DNA from: Candidatus Competibacter sp.
GTDB lineage: Bacteria; Pseudomonadota; Gammaproteobacteria; Competibacterales; Competibacteraceae
DNA: 32,342 nt
Assembly: GCA_031732875.1 (NCBI GenBank)
Contig: JAVMKL010000101.1
Span: forward strand, 1 to 32,342
Direction: 5' to 3'
Shown here: positions 5,806-31,396 of the stretch, in pieces
Layout of the letters: every line of letters starts with the position of its first letter
Numbering within the stretch: the stretch's first letter is position 1
Translations under genes and position numbers: made by a program
Notes under the pieces: model-generated
Seen by the model: only the letters and a program-made list of their open reading frames with translations
The model's database searches: none
Told to the model about the DNA's origin: nothing

Positions 5806-6831
5806 TTATATCGCATCATCTGGCGACAGCTCCTCGCGACCGAACCGGACCAGCACCCCGATCCGCTGTTCCTCCAGCGAGGTCAACTCGACCAAGGCGA
5901 TGGTTTCGCCTGGTTCCGGCGAATCCGGGTCGAGTTTGATGCCGAGCCGGTTGAGCCGCAGGGACAGCGGACGGATCCGAAGGTAGTCCTCCGGCTGGCC
6001 GAGCATCCGCCGCACCTGTTCCAGATAGTCGTCCAGCGTGTTCAATGGCTTGCGGGCGTCGGCCAGATCCTGCTCGGTCCGATCCAGCCGCCGTTCCAAC
6101 TCCGCCAGACGGCGTTCGTCGGGGTCCGCGCTCGATGGCAACGGTCGCGGGCCATGGGCGTTTCCCCGCAACGCGCCCAACTGCGCCCGCAACTGCCGTT
6201 GCTGTTCCTCCAGCGTTTCCCGCCGCGTCCGCAGTTCGACGATCCGATCCCGCGCCCGGCTCGCCAGAAACACCAGCATTCGTTGCCGGAGTTCCTTGCG
6301 CAGATCCGATTCGCTGGCGGCCGGAAAGAACAGCCGGTGGTCCGAGAAGCTGACCTGAATCTGGCGAACTTCGCGGACCAGCATCTCGCCTTCCAGCGCG
6401 GTGCCGAAGGTTTCAGTTTCGTGCATGACCATCAGCATCCAGGCGAAGCACTCCTGCCGGCCGTTCTCCTTGAAAAAAGCCCGCACTTCGGGGTCGCCGC
6501 TCAGGATGGCCCGCAGGTCGTCCGCCGTCGCGAAAAAGGCGTTGACCCGCGGATCCCTGGCCCAGGCGTGGCTGCCGAGAGCCAGCGCTGGCGGCACTTG
6601 TCGCAGCACGCCCTCGCAATGGGCCAAGGCGGTTTCCACGGCGTCCACCAGCTTTTCGGCGTAGTCACCGACCAGCCGGATACGCGGCTCGCTGGCGTCT
6701 ACGATCCGTTCGATGGACTCCCGCATGACCGCCAGCCGCTCCTGGTTCAGGCGGTGCTCGGCCAACTGGTGCTCGGCGAACGCCGTGATGCCGCCGAGCA
6801 CGTGTTGCAGGAAGCCGTGACCGTCGGTCAT
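5806..6831 (-). CDS. Hypothetical protein (341 aa) with a long Arg/Glu/Leu-rich predicted coiled-coil segment; no family recognised
   Basis: Start MTDGHGFLQ at 6831. The upstream part of the 485-aa track ORF is the reverse frame of the HNH gene and is rejected. Same strand as, and 67 nt downstream of, the HNH gene. Confidence 0.55.
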   Translation of the reverse strand: MTDGHGFLQHVLGGITAFAEHQLAEHRLNQERLAVMRESIERIVDASEPRIRLVGDYAEKLVDAVETALAHCEGVLRQVPPALALGSHAWARDPRVNAFFATADDLRAILSGDPEVRAFFKENGRQECFAWMLMVMHETETFGTALEGEMLVREVRQIQVSFSDHRLFFPAASESDLRKELRQRMLVFLASRARDRIVELRTRRETLEEQQRQLRAQLGALRGNAHGPRPLPSSADPDERRLAELERRLDRTEQDLADARKPLNTLDDYLEQVRRMLGQPEDYLRIRPLSLRLNRLGIKLDPDSPEPGETIALVELTSLEEQRIGVLVRFGREELSPDDAI

Positions 6832-6898
6832 TGTCGCTGTCCCCTCTTCCCCACGCGATGGATGCCGAGCCTCGCCCCTTACTACCCCTCGCGCGGAT

Positions 6899-7498
6899 TC
6901 ACGACAATCGGGCCAGCCGCTGGTGCAACGGGCTGGACCGCGGGAAGTGCGCGCGCAGGAAATCCATCTGATCGACCAGCACCCGCCTGCCCTGCAGGTA
7001 GACGTATTCCGCGTGATTGGGCGTGAACGGAATCGCCAGCAACTGCATCCCGGCCTGTTCCGGGGTCTTGCCGCCTTTTTGGTGATTGCAGGGCTTGCAG
7101 GCGGTGACCACGTTGTTCCAGTGATCGCCGCCGCCCTGCACGATGGGCCGGACATGATCGCGGGACAAGTCGCGAACCGGGAAGGTCTCGCCGCAATACA
7201 GGCAGGTATTGCAGTCGCGCCGGAACAGGGAAACGTTCGAGAGCGGTGGGACGTAGTCGTCACGGGCGCGCAGCCGGGCGTAGGTACCGCCCTGGGTGGC
7301 GATGATGGAATTCACCGTGATGACGCTGCGTTGGCCGCTGCGGGCGTTGAAGCCTCCACGAACCGTGTACAGCACCATGCCGCAGGTGTAGGCTACCTGT
7401 TCGGCATAATAAAGCCGAACCGCCTGTTGATAGTCAATCCACTCCAGCGGCATTCCCGTCACGTCCGTATGCAAAACCTGTTGCTCCAGTCCGTACAT
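6899..7498 (-). CDS. HNH endonuclease-family protein
   Basis: CNTCLYCG...HVRPIVQGGGDHWNNVVTACKPCNHQKGGKT is a canonical HNH (Cys4 plus His-Asn-His) signature. AGGTGA SD lies 4 nt upstream of ATG 7498. Confidence 0.8.
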   Translation of the reverse strand: MYGLEQQVLHTDVTGMPLEWIDYQQAVRLYYAEQVAYTCGMVLYTVRGGFNARSGQRSVITVNSIIATQGGTYARLRARDDYVPPLSNVSLFRRDCNTCLYCGETFPVRDLSRDHVRPIVQGGGDHWNNVVTACKPCNHQKGGKTPEQAGMQLLAIPFTPNHAEYVYLQGRRVLVDQMDFLRAHFPRSSPLHQRLARLS

Positions 7499-7815
7499 GC
7501 TTCACCTGTGCCTGTTCCCATCCCCGTGCCGCATTGTCGCCAGTCCACACGAACCTCCGTCGACATCCACCCAATAGACGCGCGAGCGACCCATGGGTTG
7601 CGCGATCGCCGGGAAACTCCGAGTATATTTGAGCCTGTGCTTTTGTGATGGTGAAAGTCTAGGCTACTATTCTACAAGTATCGCGCGTTTCCCGCCGATG
7701 GCGCGCGCGACCACCTCGAATCCCCGATCCCCGGCTGGCTTCGCGCAGGCCTTTTTTCGTGTCAGTTTCCCGGCGGGCGGGCGCCGGGAAGAATAACAAC
7801 CGTGAGGACAACAAC

Positions 7816-8937
7816 ATGCCAGTTCGTATGGCCGTCCCGAAGGAAATCGTTTCGGGCGAACGACGGGTCGCGCTGGACCCGACGATGGCCGAGCGTTTCA
7901 GCAAGCTCGGCGTCGAAATCCTGTTGGAAAAGGGCGCCGGTCTCAGCGCCTTTTTCCCCGATGAGGCTTATGGCAAGAGCAGCCGGCTGGTGGACGGCGC
8001 CCAAGCCCTGTACGCCGAGGCCGACGTGGTGTTCAAGGTGCAGGCGCCGACCCTGGAAGAGGTGGAACTGCTCCGGGATGGCTCGACCCTGTTGGCTGTT
8101 TTGCAAGCGCATCGCAACGTCGAGATGGTCAAGCGGCTGCGCGACAAGAAGATCACCAGTTTCGCCATGGAACTGATCCCGCGCATCTCCCGCGCCCAGT
8201 CGATGGACGTGCTGTCCTCGCAAGCCGCCGTGGCCGGCTACTATGTGGCGTTGCGGGCGGCCATTCTGGCCAGCGGGTTCTTCCCCATGCTGACCACCGC
8301 CGCCGGCACCATCCGCCCCTCCAAGGTCGTCATCGTCGGTGCGGGCGTAGCCGGCTTGCAGGCGATCGCCACCTGCCGCCGGCTCGGCGCGATGGTGGAA
8401 GCCTACGACATTCGTCCCGCGGCCCGGCAAGAGATCGAATCGCTGGGCGCCAAGATGATCGACACCGGAGTCAACGCCGCCGCCGAGGGCGGCTACGCCC
8501 GCGAACTGACGGCGGAAGAGAGGCAGAAACAGGCCGATGTGTTGGCCAAGCACGTCGCCGCCGCCAATGCGGTCATCACCACCGCGGCCATTCCCGGCCG
8601 GGCCGCGCCGAAGATCGTGACCGCCGCGATGGTGGAAACCATGAAGCGCGGCGCGGTGATCGTGGACCTGGCGGCCGAATCGGGCGGCAACTGCGAGCTG
8701 ACCCGTCCCGGCGAAACCCACGAGCACAACGGCGTCCTCATCGACGGCCCGCTCAACATCCCCAGCAGCTTCCCGGTTCCGGCCAGCGAGATGTACGCCA
8801 AGAACTTGTACAACTTCCTGTCGCCGATGATCAAGGACGGCAACCTGAACCTGGATTGGAACGACGAGGTGATCGCCAAGAGCGCGCTGACCCGCGACGG
8901 GCAGATCGTCCACGAACCCACCAGCAAGCTGGTATAA
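7816..8937 (+). CDS. pntAA: NAD(P) transhydrogenase subunit alpha part 1 (dI domain)
   Basis: Translation MPVRMAVPKEIVSGERRVALDP...VVIVGAGVAGLQAI (Rossmann GxGxxG) matches PntAA. GAGGA SD lies upstream of ATG 7816. Confidence 0.9.
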   Translation: MPVRMAVPKEIVSGERRVALDPTMAERFSKLGVEILLEKGAGLSAFFPDEAYGKSSRLVDGAQALYAEADVVFKVQAPTLEEVELLRDGSTLLAVLQAHRNVEMVKRLRDKKITSFAMELIPRISRAQSMDVLSSQAAVAGYYVALRAAILASGFFPMLTTAAGTIRPSKVVIVGAGVAGLQAIATCRRLGAMVEAYDIRPAARQEIESLGAKMIDTGVNAAAEGGYARELTAEERQKQADVLAKHVAAANAVITTAAIPGRAAPKIVTAAMVETMKRGAVIVDLAAESGGNCELTRPGETHEHNGVLIDGPLNIPSSFPVPASEMYAKNLYNFLSPMIKDGNLNLDWNDEVIAKSALTRDGQIVHEPTSKLV

Positions 8938-8956
8938 CAAAATCCGGAGAAGCGTT

Positions 8957-9268
8957 ATGGAAGTCATGAAGCAAGTTGTCGAGTTCTTCTCCCCTATTTA
9001 CATCTTGATGCTGGCCGGCTTTCTGGGCTATGAAATCATCGCCCGGGTGCCGGTTATCCTGCACACCCCGCTGATGTCCGGCACCAACTTCGTTCACGGC
9101 ATCGTGCTGGTGGGCGCGATGGTGGCGCTGGGCCAGGCCGTGACCCCGCTGGAGCAGACCATCGGGTTCCTCGGTGTATTGCTGGGCGCAGGCAACGCGG
9201 TCGGTGGCTATTTCGTCACGGAGCGGATGCTCGAAATGTTCAAGAGCAGCAAGGGCCAGGAGAAGTAA
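8957..9268 (+). CDS. pntAB: NAD(P) transhydrogenase subunit alpha part 2 (membrane dII fragment)
   Basis: 103-aa hydrophobic protein between pntAA and pntB, as expected for the split-alpha organisation. GGAGA SD present. Confidence 0.85.
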   Translation: MEVMKQVVEFFSPIYILMLAGFLGYEIIARVPVILHTPLMSGTNFVHGIVLVGAMVALGQAVTPLEQTIGFLGVLLGAGNAVGGYFVTERMLEMFKSSKGQEK

Positions 9269-9271
9269 GTC

Positions 9272-10681
9272 ATGGGCTATCTCATTGAAACGATTTATTT
9301 CCTGACGGCGGCGCTGTTCATCATCGGACTGAAGCGAATGTCGCATCCGACGACGGCCCGCAGCGGCATCGTCTGGGCCGGCTATGGGATGGTGCTGGCA
9401 ACCGTGGTCAGCTTCGTTCACCCGCAGATTACCGCGCATATCGTCGCGGCCAACTACGTGTTGATGGTGATCGCTATCGTCATCGGCGGCGCGATTGCCT
9501 GGTGGGGCGCCAAAAAGGTGCCGATGACCGCCATGCCGCAGATGATCGCCATTTACAACGGCATGGGCGGTGGCGCGGCGGCGGCGATTGCCGCGGTGGA
9601 ACTGCTCAAGAACCATGGTGACCAGTTGCCGCAGACCCACATCATGATCATGGCGGTGGCCGGCGCGCTGATCGGCGCCGTCGCCTTCTCCGGTTCGGTG
9701 GTCGCCTTCGGCAAATTGCAGGAACTCAAATTTTTCAAGGATGACGCCAAGTTCCGTTTCGAGGGACAACAGAAAGTCAATGCGGCGATTTTCGGCGCAG
9801 CGGTGGTGTTGGGCCTGGTGATCGCGTTGAGCCACAGTTCCAGCGGCGCGCTGATCACCGTGTTCTTCCTGCTGGCGCTGGCGTTTGGCGCGATGATGGC
9901 CCTGCCCATCGGCGGCGCGGACATGCCGGTGGTCATTTCGCTGTTCAACGCCTTCACCGGTCTGGCGGTGGCGCTGGAAGGCTTTGTGCTGGGTAACTCG
10001 GCCATGATCATCGCCGGCATCATCGTCGGCTCGTCAGGCACGCTGTTGACCTTGATGATGGCCAAAGCGATGAATCGCTCGGTGTCGAACGTGTTGTTCA
10101 GCAACTGGGCGGCGTTGGGCAGCGGCGAGGCGCAAGCGGTGACGGGCAGCCTCAAGCCGATGGAGCCGCCGGATGCGGCGATTCAGATGGCGTATGCGAG
10201 CAAGGTCATTATCGTACCCGGTTATGGCATGGCGGTCGCTCAGGCGCAGCACAAAATCTGGGAAATGTGCAAGCTGCTCATGGAGCGCGACGTCACGGTC
10301 AAGTTCGCCATTCATCCCGTTGCGGGCCGCATGCCCGGTCACATGAACGTGTTGCTGGCCGAAGCGGGGGTTCCCTACGATCTGATCTTCGATATGGAGG
10401 AGATCAACGAAGAGTTTTCTACCGCCGATGTAGCCCTGGTAATCGGCGCCAACGATGTGGTGAATCCGGCGGCGCGCACCGACAAGGCTAGCCCGATCTA
10501 CGGGATGCCGATCCTGAACGTGGATCACGCCAAGAACGTGCAGGTGATCAAACGCGGCAAGGGCGTGGGCTTCGCCGGCATCGAAAACGCACTGTTCTTC
10601 GCCGACAACACCCGGATGGTCTACGGCGACGCGCAAAAAGTTGCGGCAGGAATGATCCAAGGGATCAAGGATCTCGGCTAG
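9272..10681 (+). CDS. pntB: NAD(P) transhydrogenase subunit beta
   Basis: 469 aa with an N-terminal polytopic membrane domain and a C-terminal dIII NADP-binding domain (GYGMAVAQAQH...VKFAIHPVAGRMPGHMNVLLAEA). Confidence 0.9.
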   Translation: MGYLIETIYFLTAALFIIGLKRMSHPTTARSGIVWAGYGMVLATVVSFVHPQITAHIVAANYVLMVIAIVIGGAIAWWGAKKVPMTAMPQMIAIYNGMGGGAAAAIAAVELLKNHGDQLPQTHIMIMAVAGALIGAVAFSGSVVAFGKLQELKFFKDDAKFRFEGQQKVNAAIFGAAVVLGLVIALSHSSSGALITVFFLLALAFGAMMALPIGGADMPVVISLFNAFTGLAVALEGFVLGNSAMIIAGIIVGSSGTLLTLMMAKAMNRSVSNVLFSNWAALGSGEAQAVTGSLKPMEPPDAAIQMAYASKVIIVPGYGMAVAQAQHKIWEMCKLLMERDVTVKFAIHPVAGRMPGHMNVLLAEAGVPYDLIFDMEEINEEFSTADVALVIGANDVVNPAARTDKASPIYGMPILNVDHAKNVQVIKRGKGVGFAGIENALFFADNTRMVYGDAQKVAAGMIQGIKDLG

Positions 10682-10709
10682 AACTCGTCGCGATTCGCGT
10701 CAAAATCGC

Positions 10710-10738
10710 AAGGCGGCCTCCGGGCCGCCTTGTTTTTC
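10710..10738 (+). terminator. Rho-independent terminator of the pnt operon
   Basis: aaggcggcc-tccg-ggccgcctt perfect 9-bp stem followed by gtttttct, 29 nt after the pntB stop. Confidence 0.75.
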
Positions 10739-20367: not shown

Positions 20368-22329
20368 TCACCTCGGCCAGCCATCGCTGGAGTGTCGCCA
20401 ATCTTCAGGGCCACCGGCAAAACCGCCGGCGAGTTGCCGGTTCAGGGCGAGCAGCCGCCGCAAAATTTCAGCGTCTGGCATGGCCGGCTGGTAGTCGTCC
20501 CAACCATACGCCGCCGCCACGGCCGCATCCAGTTGCCGATGGGCCTGATCCAGCCAGGCCGGACGGGCGTTGTAGAGATTGGTCAAGGTGCGCCGGTTCA
20601 GTTCGGCGGCGAATTCCGGTTTGGGAAGCAGTCGGTCGGGATAGCCGGGAACGATTTCGGGAACCCGCTCCACCCATTCCGGCGGATTGAGCCAGTTTTG
20701 CCGCAGCGCGTTCAAGCGGCGCGCGGCTTCGGCGATGGCGGGGAACTGAGGCCCCTCGCCCGCTTGCGGGAGAGGGGTTGGGGTGAGGGCGTTTCGATTC
20801 GGCTGCAAACCAGGGGGAAACGGAAACGTCTCGAAGCAGGTGGCGGCGTTGTAGGTCGGGTCATTTCCAACGCCGTGCCGGCTGGCGTTGGCCAGCGCCC
20901 AGACTTCGTGAATGCGGGAATGCAGAATGCCGCAGGTCGCGTCGTCGTCGCGGGCGATCACGTACAGGCGGCTGTCGGGCAGCACGGCCGAATACAGCCA
21001 GACAAACAGCCGGTGCTTGGCGACGCGGGGCGTGGCGATGTAGCGCGGGACCCGAGCCAGCGCCTTCCGCATACCCGGCATGACCTCGCCATGCCGCCAC
21101 CAATATCTGGCGCGCAACGCCCGCCGGTTCCGTTCCCGTTCCGGCTTCACATGGGCCAGCACATAGGCGAACGGCGCTTCGTACAGCGCTGCCTCGGCCT
21201 CGGACAGTTCGCCGCCGAAGTCGATGATCCAGGTATCGGACGGGCGGCGGGTGATATCCATGCCGTTGGCCCAGGGGCGCAGGACATCACCGTTCGGCCT
21301 GCCGTGAGGGTTGGGTTGTTGAAGCCACTGGCGGGCCAGTTCGCCGGGAATGTCGAAAGCGCCGACTTTGACCGGCCCCTGAAAGCAGGTAGCTATGTTT
21401 TCGCGGAGCCTCACGGCCCTGGTTAAATCGGTTTCACCGGCGGTCAGGTCGGCGTTGACGGTGGCGACGGGGTGGCCGTCGAGTGAAATTCCCCCGGCTT
21501 CGCCACTCCCAAAACATACCAGCGACACCCGCACCGCCGCGCCGTCGTTGATCCAGGGTTCGTCCGACCAGGCGTTGAAGATGCGCGCCTTCACCTCCAG
21601 CCCCTGCGGAGGGAGGGGGGTATTGAGGATGCGTTCCAGCACGGTTCGATTGGCGCCCTTGCGGATGGCCTGCGTCGCCACCAGCCCGGCCCGTTGCGCC
21701 TTCCCCGCCTCAAGCTGCGCCCGCGCCTTCTCGAACCAGTAGCACACCAAATCCGCCCCGCCCGGCACCCGCCCGTCGTAATGGGCGACTTGGCGCGGAT
21801 CGTGGCCCCGCCGCTCCAGCGATCCGGCCAAGTCGGCGAACCGCCCCGCCGCCGCCAGGGTGATGTCGCGGTCGGTGCGGCGGGGGCGGAACTGCGCGGG
21901 GTGATCGAACACCGCGCGCAGCTTGGCGAGGTTCTCCGGCCGGCCGATCTCCTCCAGCCGGATGACGTGGGCTTCCGAGGGCGTGCCGGTGAAATGGGTG
22001 TGAATCTCGATGGTCCGCCGGTCGCAAACCACCAGCAGCGGCGGGTTGTCCAGGGCCAGGGCGTAGGTCATCAACTGCTTGAGCGCCTCGCCCAGATGGC
22101 CGCCCGGGGCCTTGTTCTCCCAGGCGAAACAGCCGCGCTTCCACACATCCGCCCAGCCACGCCCGGCCCCGGTGCGCGCCGCCCCGCGCTCGAAACAATA
22201 GTTCTCCGGGTCGCCGGGCTTGGCGACCCCCAGAATCTCGCAGAGATCGAGAAAGAACGGCTGAGCGCCGGCCCGCTCGCTCAGCGGATTGTCGCGCCAC
22301 AGGGCGATGAATTCAGCGGGAGTTCGCAA
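20368..22329 (-). CDS. MmeI-family (type IIL restriction-modification) homologue that retains the N-terminal PD-(D/E)xK nuclease domain and the C-terminal TRD/C-domain but lacks the methyltransferase catalytic core
   Basis: N-terminus aligns with MmeI (AQPFFLDLCEILGV ~ AKPFLIDFFEVFGI; GWADVWKRGCFAWENK...LLVVCDRRTIEIHT ~ GFVDLFWPGILLIEMK...YVLVCDFQRFRLT, with the D...ExK motif). The C-terminus also aligns (ARIFNAWSDEPW ~ AHRTFSWTNEAS; LTNLYNARPAWLDQAHRQLDAAVAAAYGW ~ LAGLYDPKTMPSELLKAHQKLDKAVDSVYGF). No FxGxG or NPPF/Y motifs are present, and the protein is ~270 aa shorter than MmeI. The only possible start is TTG 22329. Confidence 0.7.
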   Translation of the reverse strand: MRTPAEFIALWRDNPLSERAGAQPFFLDLCEILGVAKPGDPENYCFERGAARTGAGRGWADVWKRGCFAWENKAPGGHLGEALKQLMTYALALDNPPLLVVCDRRTIEIHTHFTGTPSEAHVIRLEEIGRPENLAKLRAVFDHPAQFRPRRTDRDITLAAAGRFADLAGSLERRGHDPRQVAHYDGRVPGGADLVCYWFEKARAQLEAGKAQRAGLVATQAIRKGANRTVLERILNTPLPPQGLEVKARIFNAWSDEPWINDGAAVRVSLVCFGSGEAGGISLDGHPVATVNADLTAGETDLTRAVRLRENIATCFQGPVKVGAFDIPGELARQWLQQPNPHGRPNGDVLRPWANGMDITRRPSDTWIIDFGGELSEAEAALYEAPFAYVLAHVKPERERNRRALRARYWWRHGEVMPGMRKALARVPRYIATPRVAKHRLFVWLYSAVLPDSRLYVIARDDDATCGILHSRIHEVWALANASRHGVGNDPTYNAATCFETFPFPPGLQPNRNALTPTPLPQAGEGPQFPAIAEAARRLNALRQNWLNPPEWVERVPEIVPGYPDRLLPKPEFAAELNRRTLTNLYNARPAWLDQAHRQLDAAVAAAYGWDDYQPAMPDAEILRRLLALNRQLAGGFAGGPEDWRHSSDGWPR

Positions 22330-25561: not shown

Positions 25562-25588
25562 AAAAAAGCCCGGCCTTGCGGCCGGGCT
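25562..25588 (-). terminator. Rho-independent terminator (copy 1) belonging to the duplicated SPFH 3' segment
   Basis: On the minus strand: agcccggcc-gcaa-ggccgggct followed by tttttt. Confidence 0.7.
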
Positions 25589-25603
25589 CCGGTTTGACGG
25601 CGC

Positions 25604-25823
25604 TCAATGCGCCGGCAGGTCAATGCGCACCGTGTCGCGCAACACGCTATCCAGGCCGCCGAACACGGTCAGCCGTTCGACCTTATCCACGACCTTCTCC
25701 AGCGCTTCCAGTTCCTTGAGCCGCAGCAGCAGGGGGTTCTCTTCCATGAGCTTCGCCGTGTTGAGCAGCGAGCGGGTGGCGGCGATTTCCTCGCGGCGGC
25801 GAATGATGTTGGCCTGCGCCACC
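25604..25823 (-). pseudogene. Orphan 3' fragment of an SPFH/band-7 gene (encodes ...VAQANIIRRREEIAATRSLLNTAKLMEENPLLLRLKELEALEKVVDKVERLTVFGGLDSVLRDTVRIDLPAH*)
   Basis: Matches the last 73 aa of the intact gene at 29722..30870 with a few substitutions. The N-terminal codons of the track ORF come from the insertion. Confidence 0.8.
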
Positions 25824-25852
25824 CTCGCGGAAAAAATCCACAAATATGGAAT

Positions 25853-28762
25853 TCAGTCTTTTTCAGTATGGCTGATGACTTTTTCAACTTGAATATCATT
25901 TATTCCAAAATCGTCCTGAATTTTAGTCTGTTTCTGTTTTCTACAAACTCTGCGAGAGAATATGAAACCCTTGGGGCACAATTCTATCTGTGGCAATATT
26001 CGTTCTTTGTTAGGATTTTCACAAAATTCATCGATATCTTTCTCCTGTGAAATGAGAAATTTAAGAAAATTAACTCCCTTATATTTGCAGGTTATATAGA
26101 GACTTAAAAGGATAAGATAAGAATTTAGGCCAGATTCTGAAATCTGATAATCAACAACCTCTCGATAATAAGCAAATTCCTTAATGGCGTGTTCCGCATT
26201 GTTATTATTCCATGGTACGCCATCATGATTAATAAACGTAAATAGTTTATCCTGATACTTCACCAATCTTTTACGGTAGTCTTCAGTCACTTCAGAACGG
26301 TAAATCTTCCCCGAGATATTTTTGAAGAATTGATTAACATCCCGTTTATGCTTTCCAAGGTATTTTTTCTGGAGTCCATAATTGTCAATAGTGTCGATGA
26401 TATTGCGTAGTAATTTACCAAAATCGGATGCGAGTTTTTTAAGTTCTTCATCCCATGAATTAGCCTGTATATCATTATTAAAGTCCCTGATAAGGTGGAT
26501 TAAACACTTTTGCTGTTCACATGGAAGAGCGTCATAAGGCGCGTAAAAATCAGAAATTAATACACCTCGAAAATCTTTTAGCATATTATTTAGAAAGCTT
26601 CCCTCTCGTGATTTCCTGTAGATATATAAGACTTCTTCCATATTTGTGAAGACCCACACATACTCTTTGCCATCACGCGTGAGATGAACCTCCGTCTCGT
26701 CCACATGGATAAAAGTACCACCTATCATCTTGGCCAGAATTTGCTTGGAAGTTTCCTCATAATATTGGGATAGTAACTGCTTAAATGTGAATACATCAAC
26801 TGTGGATACAGGTAACCCAAAATAGTCATTAAACCTCTTTGCGATTTTTGAAAAACTAGATCGACATGCCACATATTCATACATGGCCCAGCTTTTCAGG
26901 GAATGGAAATACTCGTCCGAACGAAGATATTCTTCGGGTAAGAACCGCTTGCCACATGTCAAACAGCAATGCCGAGTAGTCGTAAACCGTATTACCCATC
27001 TGCTGATACCACTTTGCGTGATTTGAAGGTTTCGAGCTAAGCGAACTAACCGCCTATCCATCTGCCGAGTTATCTCTGTCCCTCTACAGCTAGGGCATTT
27101 TTGGCTACTGATTTCAATGGTATTATTTGCCAAAATATCTTTTTTGCCCTGCCTACTGTGTCTTTTAGATCTCTTTTTCTTTAGAGCCTCGTTTGTTCGA
27201 ATAAAGATTTTATCTCTTTGATAATCGAAGTATGCGCATTTGTTGATAATCCTGAAATCAGGGATAGTGAACTCTGTCCGGCCCCAGTCTGGACGGCTAG
27301 AATCTGGACTCATCTCTCCTACTTGCGATACAGGGTAACCTTCGTGGGTTATGGTCTTGGGTTGCGTCGCCGAAGTTTGCTTCGGGCAGATGGCATAAAG
27401 GAACTCTGTTACCTTCTTCAATGCAGCACAGTCTTCCAAATTGTATGTTGCGAGCATTTCTTTGAGTGCCTGCGAACCAGTTTGCTCCCACTTATTTCGC
27501 CACACAATGCTCTGTATGCCTGAAGCATCGGCTTCAGTCCAGTTAAAACCCAGATAGCCACCGATATGCTTCAAGCCATTGGAATATGTAGGGAAATAGA
27601 TATGCGAATAAATGATTGAGAGAATGTTGACAACACGAGCAAGGATCTTGTCGCCAACCTCCTGTTGGCCCAAATCTTTTATCATTCGTCGCAAGAATAT
27701 TGCCTCATAACTACCATAAGCGTAGAGGTAAAAGTCGTCGAGACGATTCACTACATCGAGAAATTTCTGGAACAGATGGAATTCCTCAGTTTGGCTGTCT
27801 ACCCAAAATGAGTGATGCTCTTCCGCTCCATTCCTCACGATAATCATACCAAGCAGGTATATATATCTGCGTTCCGGGTCACCTTCGAGATCTAAATAGA
27901 TTTGTGTTGATGGATGTGGCAGTTCGGGTGTACCAAGCACGTAGATCTTCTTATTTCGAATAGCCAACGCCTGTAAAGCATGATTGTGTGGTTGACTTTT
28001 TTGCTTTGATCGCGTATTTCTTTTTTGTGGGCGGAAGATACAGGATAGTTGAGTGACAGTGAGGATTCCTCTCTTATTGTATTTTCGGATTTCCTTTTGA
28101 CTCAATCCTTGTAGCAAACTGAGGTCATCCTTTGCTGTCGCATTAACATGGCACCGTTGGCAGAACTCGCAAATTTGGCAGTGTCGGTTAAGCATTAATA
28201 CTGGAGCTACACCACTCTCTTGGATTTCCTTAATTTCTTGTAGTGCTCGTCGTGCGCTTTTATCGCCAGAATCCAGCTTGAATTTTGTGGTATTGCATTC
28301 GCGGCCATGGATCAAAATCCCAACCTGTGGTTGCCTTCCTTGGGTATCGCCGAGGATGCAGCCATGCATTGCAAGCAAGATTTTATGTTGTCTGTTGAGT
28401 TTTTCTGCCTCGTGGAATAATACGGGAATGTAGTGAAATTCTCCTAGTCGTGATGGGCCAACTTCTTTCTGGAGAGAATCAAAGTGGACTGCAATCCTCT
28501 GATCTTCTAGAATCACGTCTGAGAGTAATGATATCCCCCGTTTTAGTGTCGCAAGTGTTAGGGTGACACCATGTGCGGTATCGACTTCTTGGTATCGAGT
28601 TACAAGTTTATGCGTGGCCGCTTGTCGTACATGGTTTCTGGTCTCTTTCTGCAATAATTCATAGGGTGATACGTTACCTTGTTCACGAATCAGCTTCAGG
28701 TATCCTTTGTATTTGCAGTTCAAGTAGCTCTCTAGAATTTCCCCGGTGATCTTCGTGTCCAT
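25853..28762 (-). CDS. 969-aa fusion protein: N-terminal TM0106-family RecB/Cas4-like nuclease plus RNase-H-like (YprB-type 3'-5' exonuclease) domains, fused to a C-terminal IS66-family transposase (zinc ribbon + DDE domain)
   Basis: N-terminus ITGEILESYLNCKYKGYL plus HCQICEFCQRC Cys cluster (Cas4-like). IYLDLEGDPERRYIYLLGMII ... YGSYEAIFL ... NLEDCAAL form an RNase_H_2 / DEDD-like exonuclease triad. CPSCRG...CLTCGKRF is the IS66 zinc finger. FIHVDETEV ... YVWVF ... RGVLISDFYAPYD ... CLIHLIRDF ... NNNAEHAIKEF is an IS66 DDE transposase core. GGAGGTAAGCT SD precedes ATG 28762. Confidence 0.8.
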   Translation of the reverse strand: MDTKITGEILESYLNCKYKGYLKLIREQGNVSPYELLQKETRNHVRQAATHKLVTRYQEVDTAHGVTLTLATLKRGISLLSDVILEDQRIAVHFDSLQKEVGPSRLGEFHYIPVLFHEAEKLNRQHKILLAMHGCILGDTQGRQPQVGILIHGRECNTTKFKLDSGDKSARRALQEIKEIQESGVAPVLMLNRHCQICEFCQRCHVNATAKDDLSLLQGLSQKEIRKYNKRGILTVTQLSCIFRPQKRNTRSKQKSQPHNHALQALAIRNKKIYVLGTPELPHPSTQIYLDLEGDPERRYIYLLGMIIVRNGAEEHHSFWVDSQTEEFHLFQKFLDVVNRLDDFYLYAYGSYEAIFLRRMIKDLGQQEVGDKILARVVNILSIIYSHIYFPTYSNGLKHIGGYLGFNWTEADASGIQSIVWRNKWEQTGSQALKEMLATYNLEDCAALKKVTEFLYAICPKQTSATQPKTITHEGYPVSQVGEMSPDSSRPDWGRTEFTIPDFRIINKCAYFDYQRDKIFIRTNEALKKKRSKRHSRQGKKDILANNTIEISSQKCPSCRGTEITRQMDRRLVRLARNLQITQSGISRWVIRFTTTRHCCLTCGKRFLPEEYLRSDEYFHSLKSWAMYEYVACRSSFSKIAKRFNDYFGLPVSTVDVFTFKQLLSQYYEETSKQILAKMIGGTFIHVDETEVHLTRDGKEYVWVFTNMEEVLYIYRKSREGSFLNNMLKDFRGVLISDFYAPYDALPCEQQKCLIHLIRDFNNDIQANSWDEELKKLASDFGKLLRNIIDTIDNYGLQKKYLGKHKRDVNQFFKNISGKIYRSEVTEDYRKRLVKYQDKLFTFINHDGVPWNNNNAEHAIKEFAYYREVVDYQISESGLNSYLILLSLYITCKYKGVNFLKFLISQEKDIDEFCENPNKERILPQIELCPKGFIFSRRVCRKQKQTKIQDDFGINDIQVEKVISHTEKD

Positions 28763-28939
28763 AGCTTACCTCCAAGGATGAAGTTTCCATTAGCAGATCC
28801 ACGCACATCAGATACTGCACCACTCGACCCCGGTCAGTCACGATGCGTTCCAGTTTCGCTGCCGACAGGCTAATAGGATTGGGCCGGAAGGTGGAACGAG
28901 TCGCGAATACGTCCAGCCGCCCGAGTCGATCCGGGCTGG

Positions 28940-29679
28940 CGTGGAACCCCGAATTATCGCGGAAGCAGCCTCAATGACTTACCGGCTAAAGCCGGTAGGT
29001 TGTTAGAGGCGTAAACGCCCGTTCAGACTCAAGTCAGTTCGGGTTGCGGATGAATCTGCCTGAAGCTCATTCCGCCAGCGCCGGTGACTCGTCCCAGACT
29101 TGGAAGGCACCCGATCCGTCCTCTTGCTCTTCGATATAGCGCTTAACTTGTTCTTCCGTCACTCTGCCCCCACCGTCACGCAGAAATACCCCCTCCCCCA
29201 CAGGTATTGGCTCCAATACCGCTTCTGCAACTCCCGAAATTCCCGCTGCAACCGATAGGAGGATTTACCCTTGAGGTATTGCAGCATCTTTGCCGGCGAC
29301 AGATACGTCGGCGCACTCACCAAGAGATGGACATGATTGGGGCGAATATTTCCCTGTATGACTACCATATCGTGTTCCGCAGCGATCATCCGCAGCAAAT
29401 CCCGGAGCCGGAGCCCGATCTCCCCGCGCAACACTGGATACCCGTACTTCGTCTTCCATACCATGTGGTACTTCAGGTCTGTAACCGTGTGGGCACCACG
29501 CCGATACCGCGCTCGATCTACCATCCGCTGTTCCCGCTCAAGCTGTAGCCCTTGACGAAGGGCGCGTGCTAAAGACGTTTCCGCCTAAAGGCGAAGGTTT
29601 ATATCCTATTGTTTGGAAATCAAACGATGCTGATCGGCGTCAAGCTAAATATTGGCGGAATTTCGGTGGACAGTGGTAC
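28940..29679 (-). mobile_element. IS200-like (IS200/IS605 family) element, ~0.74 kb, with TAAA-loop subterminal hairpins on both sides of tnpA
   Basis: tnpA is flanked by short hairpins cgcc-taaa-ggcg (29581-29592), gccctt-gacg-aagggc (29547-29562), ccggc-taaa-gccgg (28981-28994) and ggcg-taaa-cgcc (29007-29018). The size matches IS200. The left boundary is approximate. Confidence 0.5.
29068..29524 (-). pseudogene. tnpA: IS200/IS605-family Y1 (HuH) transposase tnpA, frameshifted near the 3' end
   Basis: TDLKYHMVWKTKYGYPVL ... HVHLLVSAP (HuH) ... YLKGKSSYRLQ ... RGYFCVTVGAE*. The conserved C-terminus VTEEQVKRYIEEQE continues in another frame immediately after the stop (gcaGAGtgacggaagaa), extending to TGA at 29068. 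Confidence 0.75.
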
Positions 29680-29706
29680 AAAAAAGCCCGGCCTTGCGGC
29701 CGGGCT
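29680..29706 (-). terminator. Rho-independent terminator of the intact SPFH gene (repeat copy 2)
   Basis: On the minus strand: agcccggcc-gcaa-ggccgggct followed by tttttt. The IS200-like LE begins immediately 3' of the T-run. Confidence 0.7.
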
Positions 29707-29941
29707 CCGGTTTGACGGCGCTCAATGCGCCGGCAGGTCAATGCGCACCGTATCGCGCAACACGCCATCCAGGCCACCGAACACGGTCAGCCGTTCGACC
29801 TTGTCGACCACCTTCTCCAGCGCCTCCAGTTCCTTGAGCCGCAGCAGCAGGGGGTTCTCCTCCATCAGCTTCGCCGTGTTGAGCAGCGAGCGGGTGGCGG
29901 CGGTTTCCTCGCGCCGGCGGATGACGTTGGCCTGCGCCACC
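29680..29941. repeat. Direct repeat copy 2 (262 bp) = native 3' end of the SPFH gene plus terminator
   Basis: See copy 1 (25562..25823). Confidence 0.8.
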
Positions 29942-30870
29942 TTCTCCGCCTGCACGACCTGGTTGAGAATGTCCTTCATCTCGCCCGGCAGGATCACGTC
30001 CTTCAAGCCGACCGTCTCCAGTTCCAGACCGTGCGGGCGAACCTTCTCGACCGCGTAGTCCCACACGGCCCGATCCAGTTCGTCCTTGTCGCCGAGCAGC
30101 ACGTCCAGGGTGCGGGTACCGATGGTCTGGCGCAGACCGAACTGCAAGGTCCGGTACAGGTAGTCGCCGCTGTTGCCCAGTTCGGCGCGAGCCTTCACCG
30201 GATCGGCGATCCGGTAGACCGCCGACAGGTTCACCCGCAGGCTGACCTTGTCCTTGGTCAGGATTTCCTGGCCGGAGACCTCCAGGGTCTGCAAGCGCAG
30301 GTCCACCGACTCTACCTTCACCGCCCGGTTGAACCGCCAGAAGGCGTGCAGGCCGGGCGACAGGGTACGGACCAGCTCGCCGTCCACCAGCAACAGACCG
30401 ATGTGGTTGTCCTCCACCTCGGCGACCTGAATGAAACCGGTCACATTCTTGACCAGGGTCGCCGACGGCCGCGCCAGCAGGGCCGCGTGCGCCCGCGACA
30501 GGGCGTAATCGGTGGCGATGTTGATCGACTCGACGCGAACCTCCACCGGACCCCGCCAGTAGACCCGACGGGTCGCGGGGGGCAACACGCCATCCAGACG
30601 ACCGTTCTTGTAGATCAGGCCAACCTGCCGGTCGCCGGTCTCGACGACCTGAAAATGGCGCTCGATCAGCTCCTGGTCGGTCTTCAACAGCACGTCCAGC
30701 CAGGGGTGCTCGAACTCGGCCACGGTTAGATCGTACCGCTGCACCTCGTGGCGGTTCAGAGGATCGAGCCAACGGTAAATACCCGGTTCCAGAATGGCCG
30801 CCAGCCGGCGGTCGTACAGGTGGAGCCCACGCTCGTTCTGGGCGATCACGATTCGCTTGTAACCCAACAT
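29722..30870 (-). CDS. SPFH/band-7 (stomatin/slipin-like) domain protein, apparently soluble (no N-terminal TM helix)
   Basis: The C-terminal half carries the SPFH core and coiled-coil (RTLQFGLRQTIGTRTLDVLLGDKDELD...ILPGEMKDILNQVVQAEKVAQANVIRRREE...). Start MLGYKRIVIA at 30870 has an AAGGAG SD. The upstream part of the 443-aa track ORF lacks a start signal. Confidence 0.75.
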   Translation of the reverse strand: MLGYKRIVIAQNERGLHLYDRRLAAILEPGIYRWLDPLNRHEVQRYDLTVAEFEHPWLDVLLKTDQELIERHFQVVETGDRQVGLIYKNGRLDGVLPPATRRVYWRGPVEVRVESINIATDYALSRAHAALLARPSATLVKNVTGFIQVAEVEDNHIGLLLVDGELVRTLSPGLHAFWRFNRAVKVESVDLRLQTLEVSGQEILTKDKVSLRVNLSAVYRIADPVKARAELGNSGDYLYRTLQFGLRQTIGTRTLDVLLGDKDELDRAVWDYAVEKVRPHGLELETVGLKDVILPGEMKDILNQVVQAEKVAQANVIRRREETAATRSLLNTAKLMEENPLLLRLKELEALEKVVDKVERLTVFGGLDGVLRDTVRIDLPAH

Positions 30871-31320
30871 CTTGGTTCTCCTTGTGAAGTTGTTTGCAGT
30901 CTTCCTGTTCCGCCGCAATGCGGCGGGCGAGCGTGGCGTGTTGCTAGTCGGCGCCGTTTCCGGCCCGCCACCGCCGAGCGTCAGGATGTCATCGAGACCT
31001 GCTCCTGCCGGTTGGTTGATGAAAGAGGTTAAAGGGTTGGGAGCACACCCCACGCCCGCGCGGCGGACGACGGGTCGCTGCCGGGTCGATGATCGGCGGG
31101 CCTCGTGCGGCGGCCAGCGTCCTTGCTGGCCAGCGTCGCGCTCGGCTGGCCGATCATGACTTCAGCCTGATTCCCCGTCGCGCGGGACCGCGCGGACGGT
31201 GCGGGTCGGCGACCGTCCGATGCCGAGGCACCGGGCAAGCCGCCGCCCGCCGGGGTGGCTCCCGGGGTACTACAGTCGATGAAGCGGATTCGAACCGCGA
31301 GCCGTTTTAAGGCTTTCCCA

Positions 31321-31396
31321 TGGTGGAAAAGGAGGGAGTCGAACCCTCGACCGTCTGATGATGAGTCAGATGCTCTACCCGCTGAGCTACTTTCCG
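31321..31396 (-). tRNA. tRNA-like gene with CAT anticodon (tRNA-Met/Ile2-like), 76 nt including encoded CCA, with atypical features
   Basis: The minus strand reads CGGAAAG-TA-GCTC-AGCGGGTA-GAGC-A-TCTGA-CTCATCA-TCAGA-CGGTC-GAGGG-TTCGACT-CCCTC-CTTTTCC-A-CCA. It has perfect D, anticodon and T stems. Atypical features are a C1:C72 mismatch and C at position 37. Confidence 0.6.

Follow-up and report, generated by a model that had tools for sequence, protein, structure and literature searches.

A TM0106-type Cas4-like and exonuclease module fused to an IS66-type transposase core in Candidatus Competibacter and its relatives

Domain architecture of the fusion protein

The DNA analysed here (the window) is a stretch of 32,342 nucleotides (nt) from Candidatus Competibacter sp. 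(assembly GCA_031732875.1, contig JAVMKL010000101.1, positions 1 to 32,342 of the forward strand; source genome G000 below). On its minus strand, at 25853–28762, lies an open reading frame (ORF) for a 969-amino-acid (aa) protein, P0001, in which a TM0106-type module is followed by an IS66-type DDE transposase core. A preliminary description drawn from the sequence alone had read this ORF as a fusion of a TM0106-type and an IS66-type half in an AT-rich gene, and each of these points was upheld: the 969 codons are open, hidden Markov models match both halves, and the G+C content in sliding 1-kb windows is 37–47% over the fusion gene as against 56–71% elsewhere in the window. The N-terminal half matched the NCBIfam model TIGR03491 (TM0106) end to end over aa 6–455 (model positions 2–462 of 462; 255 bits, cutoff 97.45). 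Within it, a Cas4-like Fe-S domain (aa 3–205; 28148–28756, minus strand), delimited from PADLOC, Pfam, Foldseek and family alignments, was matched by the PADLOC Cas4 model over its whole length (2.5e-7) and weakly by Pfam Cas_Cas4 (aa 119–205, 0.0036), and an RNase_H_2 or PolB-like 3'-5' exonuclease domain (aa 288–455; 27398–27901, minus strand) was recognized from Pfam (RNase_H_2, PF13482; 2.2e-24, 86.7 bits), invariant columns and Foldseek. In the C-terminal half, a four-cysteine zinc finger at the zf-IS66 position (26954–27097, minus strand) precedes the DDE catalytic core (aa 624–870; 26153–26893, minus strand), which was identified by Pfam (DDE_Tnp_IS66, PF03050; 6e-27, 95 bits, cutoff 23), NCBIfam, BLASTP (22% identity between aa 685–903 and a canonical TnpC) and Foldseek.

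An AlphaFold model of P0001, built on 24 homologues, comprised confident domains (predicted local distance difference test score, pLDDT, ~85) with disordered linkers between them. With this model as the Foldseek query, the first domain returned Cas4, Dna2 and Exo5, the second the exonuclease region of E. coli Pol II, and the third the DDE transposases ISCth4 (IS256) and Hermes. By sequence, the N-terminal domain had no match among solved structures; a resemblance of aa 194–232, the cysteine-cluster region, to the Fe-S/DNA-binding part of WhiB regulators is not significant (E ~1). The same frame is open in the genome of a sister species (G001; 97% at the aa level) and in an independent Logan contig (L108; 89%), and contigs of other runs independently bridge both element junctions.

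Invariant residues and predicted activities

Residue conservation was assessed in 24 family members with 49–79% identity to P0001, and 12 further sequences were included when the (D/E)xK motif was inspected. In the Cas4-like domain, four family-invariant cysteines (C16, C195, C198 and C204) reproduce the Cas4 pattern C...CxxCx5C, and D95 is near-invariant. The C-x2-C-x2-C-x2-C cluster of the preliminary description accordingly stands for its first, second and fourth cysteines but not for C201, which is peculiar to the window copy and lies outside the conserved set. That description had also named the domain a PD-(D/E)xK nuclease, which we cannot uphold: no conserved acidic/lysine pair occurs in the 24 + 12 sequences, no recognizable (D/E)xK is present anywhere in the family alignment, and the strand expected to hold it reads Y111-x-P113-V-h-F116-H in all members. 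Because this motif is missing, the domain is probably not a nuclease; judged by its sequence and by secondary-structure prediction it seems to have lost the PD-(D/E)xK site, and a DNA-binding Fe-S module appears more likely.

In the exonuclease domain, the DEDDy-type set D291, E293, Y440 and D444 is invariant in the 24 members and position 353 is acidic in all of them (E in 23, D in one), a pattern with which the 3'-5' exonuclease appears catalytically competent. The zinc-finger cysteines C556, C559, C600 and C603 and the DDE residues D688, D738 and E857 are likewise invariant across the 24 members.

Organization of the window locus

The AT-rich insert is bracketed by a 265-nt direct repeat (25562–25826 and 29680–29944; 95% identical) made up of the final 74 codons plus terminator hairpin of an SPFH/Band_7 gene, the target of the insertion (29722–31053, minus strand; Pfam Band_7, 2.6e-29). 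Read along the minus strand, this gene ends in the first repeat copy (DR1, 29680–29944), which holds its 3' end and terminator, and is followed by an IS66-like terminal inverted repeat, GTACCACTGTCCACCGAAATTCC (29657–29679), whose tip abuts the T-run of the terminator, by a leader of ~270 nt interrupted by an insertion of the IS200/IS605 type, by the fusion ORF, by a 26-nt stretch from its stop codon (25827–25852) and by the second, orphan repeat copy (DR2, 25562–25826) with the last 74 SPFH codons and terminator. The left end of the element, GTACCACTGTCC..., thus lies directly after the SPFH terminator, and the SPFH gene stays intact because the duplication restores its 3' end. The leader consists of a proximal promoter/leader region (28763–28955, minus strand), collinear with G001 and L108, and a distal part between the secondary insertion and the terminal repeat (29618–29656, minus strand), delimited by comparison with the same two sequences. 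The secondary insertion itself (28956–29617, minus strand; 662 bp; Pfam Y1_Tnp, 6.7e-32) carries a Y1 tnpA ORF (29159–29524) truncated at its C-terminus (profile positions 1–108 of 121). It is polymorphic, being absent in G001 and L108, and contigs in a DNA run (X10) and an RNA run (X15) pass from 28955 to 29618 with 14 other letters between.

At the other (right) end of the window copy no matching inverted repeat was found, none of IS66 type being recognizable in the 26-nt stretch, and the right-hand junction shows a few bases of microhomology. There is no 8-bp target duplication, the 265-bp duplication standing in its place, and neither tnpA nor tnpB lies between or beside the repeats. Rfam detected no RNA family in the element, a scan for promoters and terminators gave nothing above shuffled expectation, and in RNA run X15 no contig covered the ORF body, which is not evidence of silence. 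G000 contains a single fusion copy, and no canonical IS66 was found in it. No cas genes or CRISPR context appeared among the scanned flanking ORFs or the recurrent neighbours of 130 loci, PADLOC gave no defence match beyond the Cas4 domain, and no conserved host partner gene emerged among ~130 loci.

The SPFH region is a variable spot, with different downstream neighbours in every genus examined, and a tRNA-Met gene (31321–31396, minus strand) lies 270 nt upstream of the SPFH gene. In genus G012, a homologue of window 6367–10737 lies only 5 nt from the SPFH terminator (compare the window borders 10737/10738 and 25557/25558); in G000 and G001 a block of ~14.8 kb with ordinary genes (CBS, LysR, CoA transferase and citrate transporter) lies between, and its G012 homologues are on other contigs. 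Elsewhere in the window, an ORF for an MmeI-like type IIL restriction-modification protein (20368–22329, minus strand) has MmeI_N, TRD and C domains and, at 653 aa, is shorter than usual; the segment 20457–22140 in this region has no counterpart in the sister genome G001.

IS66-type ends and gene sets in relatives

Five of ~130 loci contain a canonical set of IS66 genes in convergent orientation to the fusion gene, and in four of these (L054, L144, L150 and L176) one pair of IS66-type repeats (GTA(A/C)G..TCCGG..GA...) encloses everything, with no inner repeat found between the fusion gene and tnpC. The unit in L144 reads target-site duplication CGTGATTT, inverted repeat, fusion gene, tnpC, tnpB and tnpA, inverted repeat, CGTGATTT, the 8-bp duplication being perfect, and L150 and L176 share this layout. 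In L054 the order is GCCCGTTG, inverted repeat, fusion gene, truncated tnpB and tnpA, inverted repeat, GCCCGTTG, again with a perfect 8-bp duplication; its inverted repeats match at 19 of 24 positions, and the unit has no canonical tnpC. Pfam confirmed canonical TnpC and TnpB in the IS66-type units, and the canonical TnpC of L150 and L176 matched both LZ_Tnp_IS66 and zf-IS66. The earlier remark that P0001 lacks the usual leucine-zipper N-terminus is thereby corroborated, since LZ_Tnp_IS66 does not match P0001 and the canonical TnpC beside its relatives do have this domain. The IS66 family duplicates 8 bp of its target (ISfinder; Han et al., 2001). Given the perfect 8-bp duplications of L054 and L144 together with tnpA-tnpB(-tnpC), the fusion gene belongs to IS66-family transposons, and units of the L144 and L054 types are bona fide members of that family.

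The left-end motif of the window copy resembles the repeats of L054, L144, L150 and L176, and a GTAAGCG-type repeat lies upstream of the fusion gene in L140. The window motif is nearly identical to the inverted repeats of a Bradyrhizobium ivorense copy (L058), whose tips abut repeat copies of 61–63 nt; because the motif was derived by eye from those two loci, this likeness is only suggestive and no independent test. In L058 (7119–7212 and 10855–10950) two end motifs face a 61–63-nt spacer on both sides, an arrangement like a junction of right and left ends, and the two copies in L058 are the only such two-motif units in the B. ivorense genome. A different arrangement was seen in L095 (7657–14906), where inverted repeats matching at 23 of 26 positions (GTAGCATAAG.GGACAAA) enclose 7.25 kb with the fusion gene and other ORFs, one of them with an N-terminus judged by eye to be like that of Tn3-family transposases; the unit as a whole interrupts the loop of a long palindromic hairpin.

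Size and distribution of the family

Among the best 120 database clusters, all proteins carry both Pfam domains, with lengths of 855–1134 aa (most 925–990) and 50–89% identity to P0001. Clustered at 90% identity, the family gives more than 120 clusters; scans located it at 520 or more loci of GTDB species representatives and on 574 or more metagenome contigs. With the N-terminal module as query, 822 relatives were retrieved at E ≤ 1e-30 from a library clustered at 50% identity, many of ~900–970 aa and many others shorter, which we take to be truncated fragments. Standalone close relatives of this module were considered as well: the two 'short' matches that were checked on long contigs proved to be frameshift-split or decayed fusions.

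The hosts include Planctomycetota, Acidobacteriota, Pseudomonadota (including Cupriavidus, Bradyrhizobium and Polaromonas), Cyanobacteriota, Nitrospirota, Verrucomicrobiota and archaea, and host phyla are thoroughly mixed in the protein tree. The family is large and horizontally spread among bacteria and archaea, but its prevalence is low, with carriers in only 3 of 401 sampled Planctomycetota genomes. Pseudogenized copies, split or containing stops, are common. In about 8 of 130 loci another family member is found no more than 3 kb away, as a rule as a strongly diverged tandem neighbour; such tandem pairs, 46–1000 nt apart, occur in L030, L043, L067, L121 and L189 (and L056), and the pair in L121 adjoins TniB/TniQ-like genes of a Tn7/Tn5053-type element. 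For one and the same gene pair the divergence of the N-terminal half and that of the DDE half can differ 5- to 30-fold, and family members therefore recombine with each other.

The databases name these proteins "predicted RecB family nuclease" or "TM0106 family RecB-like putative nuclease". The fusion had been presented as unusual, which does not hold, since hundreds of genomes and metagenome contigs carry it, although a full-text search of the literature found no paper describing it. COG2251 has been noted to combine PF13482 with DUF83, and nothing further (Majorek et al., 2014; PMC3985635).

Age and inheritance of the window copy

In G001 and L108 the element occupies the site that it has in the window, with identical repeat borders. 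Synonymous divergence (dS) of the fusion gene is 0.05–0.21 (0.05 against G001, where neighbouring host genes give 0.075–0.15), and the ratio of nonsynonymous to synonymous divergence (dN/dS) is 0.24 against L108 and 0.29 against G001, with 0.17 for the DDE part. From the shared site and these values the insertion is old and vertically inherited, and the recent horizontal origin that had been read from the base composition was discarded. The window protein is probably functional, since purifying selection persists, and the window element as such is probably stranded.

The SPFH gene occurs without the element, and with other downstream neighbours, in the other genera G012, G014 and G018. An empty counterpart of the window site was not found among 30 relatives, which proves nothing; the assemblies of G012 and G014 have the left flank on one contig and the SPFH gene on another. 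Contigs that skip the whole window element were found in none of four runs, and in Bradyrhizobium and Polaromonas the regions searched for empty sites are variable or accessory and gave no clean comparison.

Long direct repeats flanking the fusion gene

To look for long flanking repeats like that of the window, a first set of loci was scanned for direct repeats (35 bp or longer) with copies in the 1.5 kb to either side, and shifted intervals served as control. Such repeats were present in 7 of 46 loci, compared with 2 of 63 control intervals, and in 8 of 69 loci of an independent set from metagenomes, for which 2.5 kb to either side was scanned. These repeats measure 35 to at least 396 bp, with 72–96% identity, and 85–88% of the loci have none. 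Repeats in five loci of the first scan were set aside as unrelated, being fragments of another insertion sequence (L037), tandem family members (L067, L030 and L056) or flanking paralogous genes (L173). In the window, L082 (comM), L091, L065 and L179 the host-side copy is the 3' end of a co-oriented upstream gene and ends at the stop codon or up to ~40 nt beyond. In L208 it is a convergent integrase gene whose 3' end forms the repeat, and the fusion copy, truncated at both ends, is nonetheless flanked by 100-bp repeats.

Pooled mismatches between repeat copies number 16/4/45 at codon positions 1, 2 and 3 (5/0/21 in L082 alone). An orphan copy decaying in place is expected to gain second-position changes; these are rare, and much of the divergence therefore arose in working genes of different lineages. 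A model in which the host-side repeat serves as a surrogate 3' end of att type and travels with the element was rejected on comparing L082 and L090, which share the comM site: the repeat copy is ~77% identical, like the host gene, and not ~90%, like the element. Between these two, the N-terminal half and a 660-nt tail are ~90% identical, as against ~55% for the DDE half. The tail, downstream of the fusion gene (L082 4889–5548; ~92% identical in L090), has at its end an ORF whose C-terminus is XRE/HigA-like, and could be cargo of toxin-antitoxin type.

Flanking DNA can travel with the fusion gene, as in L029. Beside the L029 element lies a 75-nt orphan copy of the 3' end of a gene that in L028 (4568–7330) is located upstream of the related element and encodes a 920-aa protein with a P-loop (GGGKT), by eye like a DUF499-type ATPase.

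Two origins of the long duplications can be entertained. A solitary fusion transposase might integrate with a very wide stagger, for which we see a reasonable if minority case. Slightly more likely in our view, though still short of even odds, is a spread of copies between related hosts by recombination anchored in the homologous neighbouring gene (in the window, import of a truncated copy anchored in the SPFH gene) with an illegitimate second join, which would explain the missing right-hand repeat of the window copy and the few bases of microhomology there.

Interpretation and alternatives

We consider it probable that the fusion ORF is a TnpC-type IS66-family DDE transposase whose leucine-zipper N-terminus has been replaced by a TM0106-type module. 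Its enzymatic roles are proposed from sequence and fold. The Cas4-like 4Fe-4S domain would clamp DNA ends or single strands, the DEDDy exonuclease would trim 3' flaps or overhangs at the element ends or the target gap, and the zinc finger and DDE core would bind and join IS66-type ends, trimming being comparable to that by Cas4 or DnaQ on prespacers for Cas1-Cas2, or to the aid that TnsA gives TnsB in Tn7. The window copy would have landed directly 3' of the SPFH terminator and later been inherited vertically in G000, G001 and the organism of L108, with an IS200 element then hitting it in the window lineage, and it is best read as a stranded, one-ended member still under selection.

Several observations weigh against this proposal. 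On P0001 the equivalog model for IS66 transposases (transpos_IS66, NF033517; aa 531–903) scored 173 bits, a near miss below its cutoff of 180, and Pfam zf-IS66, LZ_Tnp_IS66 and DDE_Tnp_IS66_C gave no match. Neither alignments of flanks and of repeat-defined ends nor k-mer enrichment brought out terminal repeats common to the family or an enriched flank motif. Where close copies sit in different contexts (L185/L081, L096/L202 and the L208 group), their homology covers just the gene and very little flank, and its borders show neither repeats nor duplications. Complete genomes mostly hold one copy, unlike a typical proliferating insertion sequence. Canonical TnpC is also present in the four-gene units, so that the fusion protein may not be what moves them, and a fixed single copy could equally be under purifying selection for a function at host level.

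The last point leads to exaptation, in which the gene of the window lineage would have ceased to belong to a mobile element and would serve its host, for instance in DNA-end processing, repair or defence against other mobile DNA, which would account for its intactness. The single copy, the site shared by G000, G001 and the organism of L108, the dN/dS of 0.24–0.29 maintained over a dS of 0.05–0.21, the want of a recognizable second inverted repeat and the lack of a detected canonical IS66 in G000 all agree with such a role. We nevertheless think it unlikely, as the family is patchy (in well under 1% of genomes) and its copies frequently pseudogenized, the gene's composition is foreign to the host, and relatives are embedded in IS66 units with target duplications; moreover, PADLOC defence matches are limited to the Cas4 domain, no host partner gene is conserved and, as weak evidence, one RNA run gave no contig over the ORF body.

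A similarly modest chance is given to the view that TnpA, TnpB and TnpC carry out transposition and that the fusion protein is a helper (in end or gap processing, or in competition with other IS66 elements) or mere cargo, solitary copies like that of the window being debris from the loss of the other parts of the insertion sequence. It draws on the four-gene units of L144, L150 and L176, in which outer IS66 repeats enclose a full tnpC without an inner repeat, on the 8-bp duplications around four-gene units, and on the one repeat of the window copy. Yet cargo would have no need of a DDE triad and zinc finger that are invariant and strongly constrained (DDE dN/dS 0.17), L054 has a perfect 8-bp duplication without canonical tnpC, and tnpABC lie nearby in just 5 of ~130 loci.

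It is rather doubtful that solitary members integrate independently of fixed ends, the clamp and exonuclease capturing and trimming whatever ends flank the gene on linear DNA, and the DDE core joining these to the two target strands tens to hundreds of bases apart. Equally doubtful is the outcome expected of it, namely duplications of 35–400 bp that as a rule leave the neighbouring gene with its 3' end; in a variant, the carried piece of duplicated target guides the next insertion by homology. The excess of repeats (35–396 bp) in both sets over control intervals fits this mechanism, as do repeat borders at or just after a neighbour's stop codon in at least six loci (the window, L082, L091, L065, L179 and L208), the homology of close copies ending at or near the ORF borders without repeats, the repeats around the doubly truncated L208 copy, and the travelling flank of L029. 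Against it, the mismatches avoid codon position 2, which points to recombinational import rather than duplication in situ, the repeats of L185 are only 87% identical though its gene is 98.5% identical to that of L081, most loci have no repeat, and the relatives with 8-bp duplications behave like ordinary IS66.

Finally, an artefact in which two genes were joined by a sequencing frameshift or chimeric assembly, as might be suspected from a metagenome-assembled source genome of 300 contigs and the abrupt composition switch at the fusion gene, is effectively refuted by the identical open frame in G001 and L108, hundreds of full-length homologues from many sources, junctions spanned by other runs' contigs and conservation unbroken across the domain junction, so that the preliminary description's own caveat of a frameshift falls away.

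Comparison with known systems and significance

If the fusion protein is, as we favour, an IS66-family transposase, its nearest counterparts are the IS66 elements (tnpA-tnpB-tnpC; IS66, IS679 and the single-ORF ISBst12 group), with which it shares a homologous DDE core (PF03050) and a zinc finger before it; its relatives lie between GTA(A/C)G...-type repeats with 8-bp duplications, sometimes beside tnpA/tnpB, and the window copy retains one IS66-like repeat. It differs in having a Cas4-like and exonuclease module of ~460 aa in place of the leucine zipper, in the lack of tnpA/tnpB, a recognizable second repeat and an 8-bp duplication at the window copy, in usually occurring once per genome, and in the many loci that show no repeats or long imperfect flanking duplications. 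With the TM0106 family (TIGR03491/COG2251: DUF83/Cas4-like plus PF13482), the name under which NCBI and JGI label the fusion proteins, it has in common the end-to-end match over aa 6–455, the domain order and the cysteine pattern, whereas the IS66 transposase body of ~500 aa that follows the module and the absence of (D/E)xK set it apart.

Cas4 and the DEDDh/DnaQ exonucleases that trim prespacers for Cas1-Cas2 resemble it in N-domain fold, in the Fe-S cysteine pattern and in coupling an exonuclease that trims ends to an enzyme of integrase type, but here there is no cas or CRISPR context among the scanned ORFs and no (D/E)xK, and the place of Cas1 is taken by a DDE transposase within one and the same chain. 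TnsA-TnsB of Tn7 likewise combine a restriction-endonuclease-fold domain with a DDE transposase, and insertion just past the 3' end of a conserved gene and tandem arrays at one site are further likenesses; in the fusion protein, however, the parts are fused and include an exonuclease domain as well, the PD-(D/E)xK part seems inactive, and TnsC, TnsD or TniQ partners are missing.

IS66 is among the most abundant families of insertion sequences and mechanistically among the least understood. The fusion architecture is as first described but not categorically new, being best placed in the TnpC line of the IS66 family; we know of no earlier DDE transposase that incorporates a 3'-5' exonuclease. 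The family is a natural experiment on the coupling of end processing to strand transfer, parallel to Cas4/DnaQ trimming in CRISPR adaptation and to TnsA/TnsB in Tn7, and its elements are missed in mobilome surveys because the database name "TM0106 family RecB-like putative nuclease" hides the transposase half. True novelty, if there is any, may lie in the long flanking duplications: if it is true that the enzyme makes them, they would represent a new mode of DDE integration.

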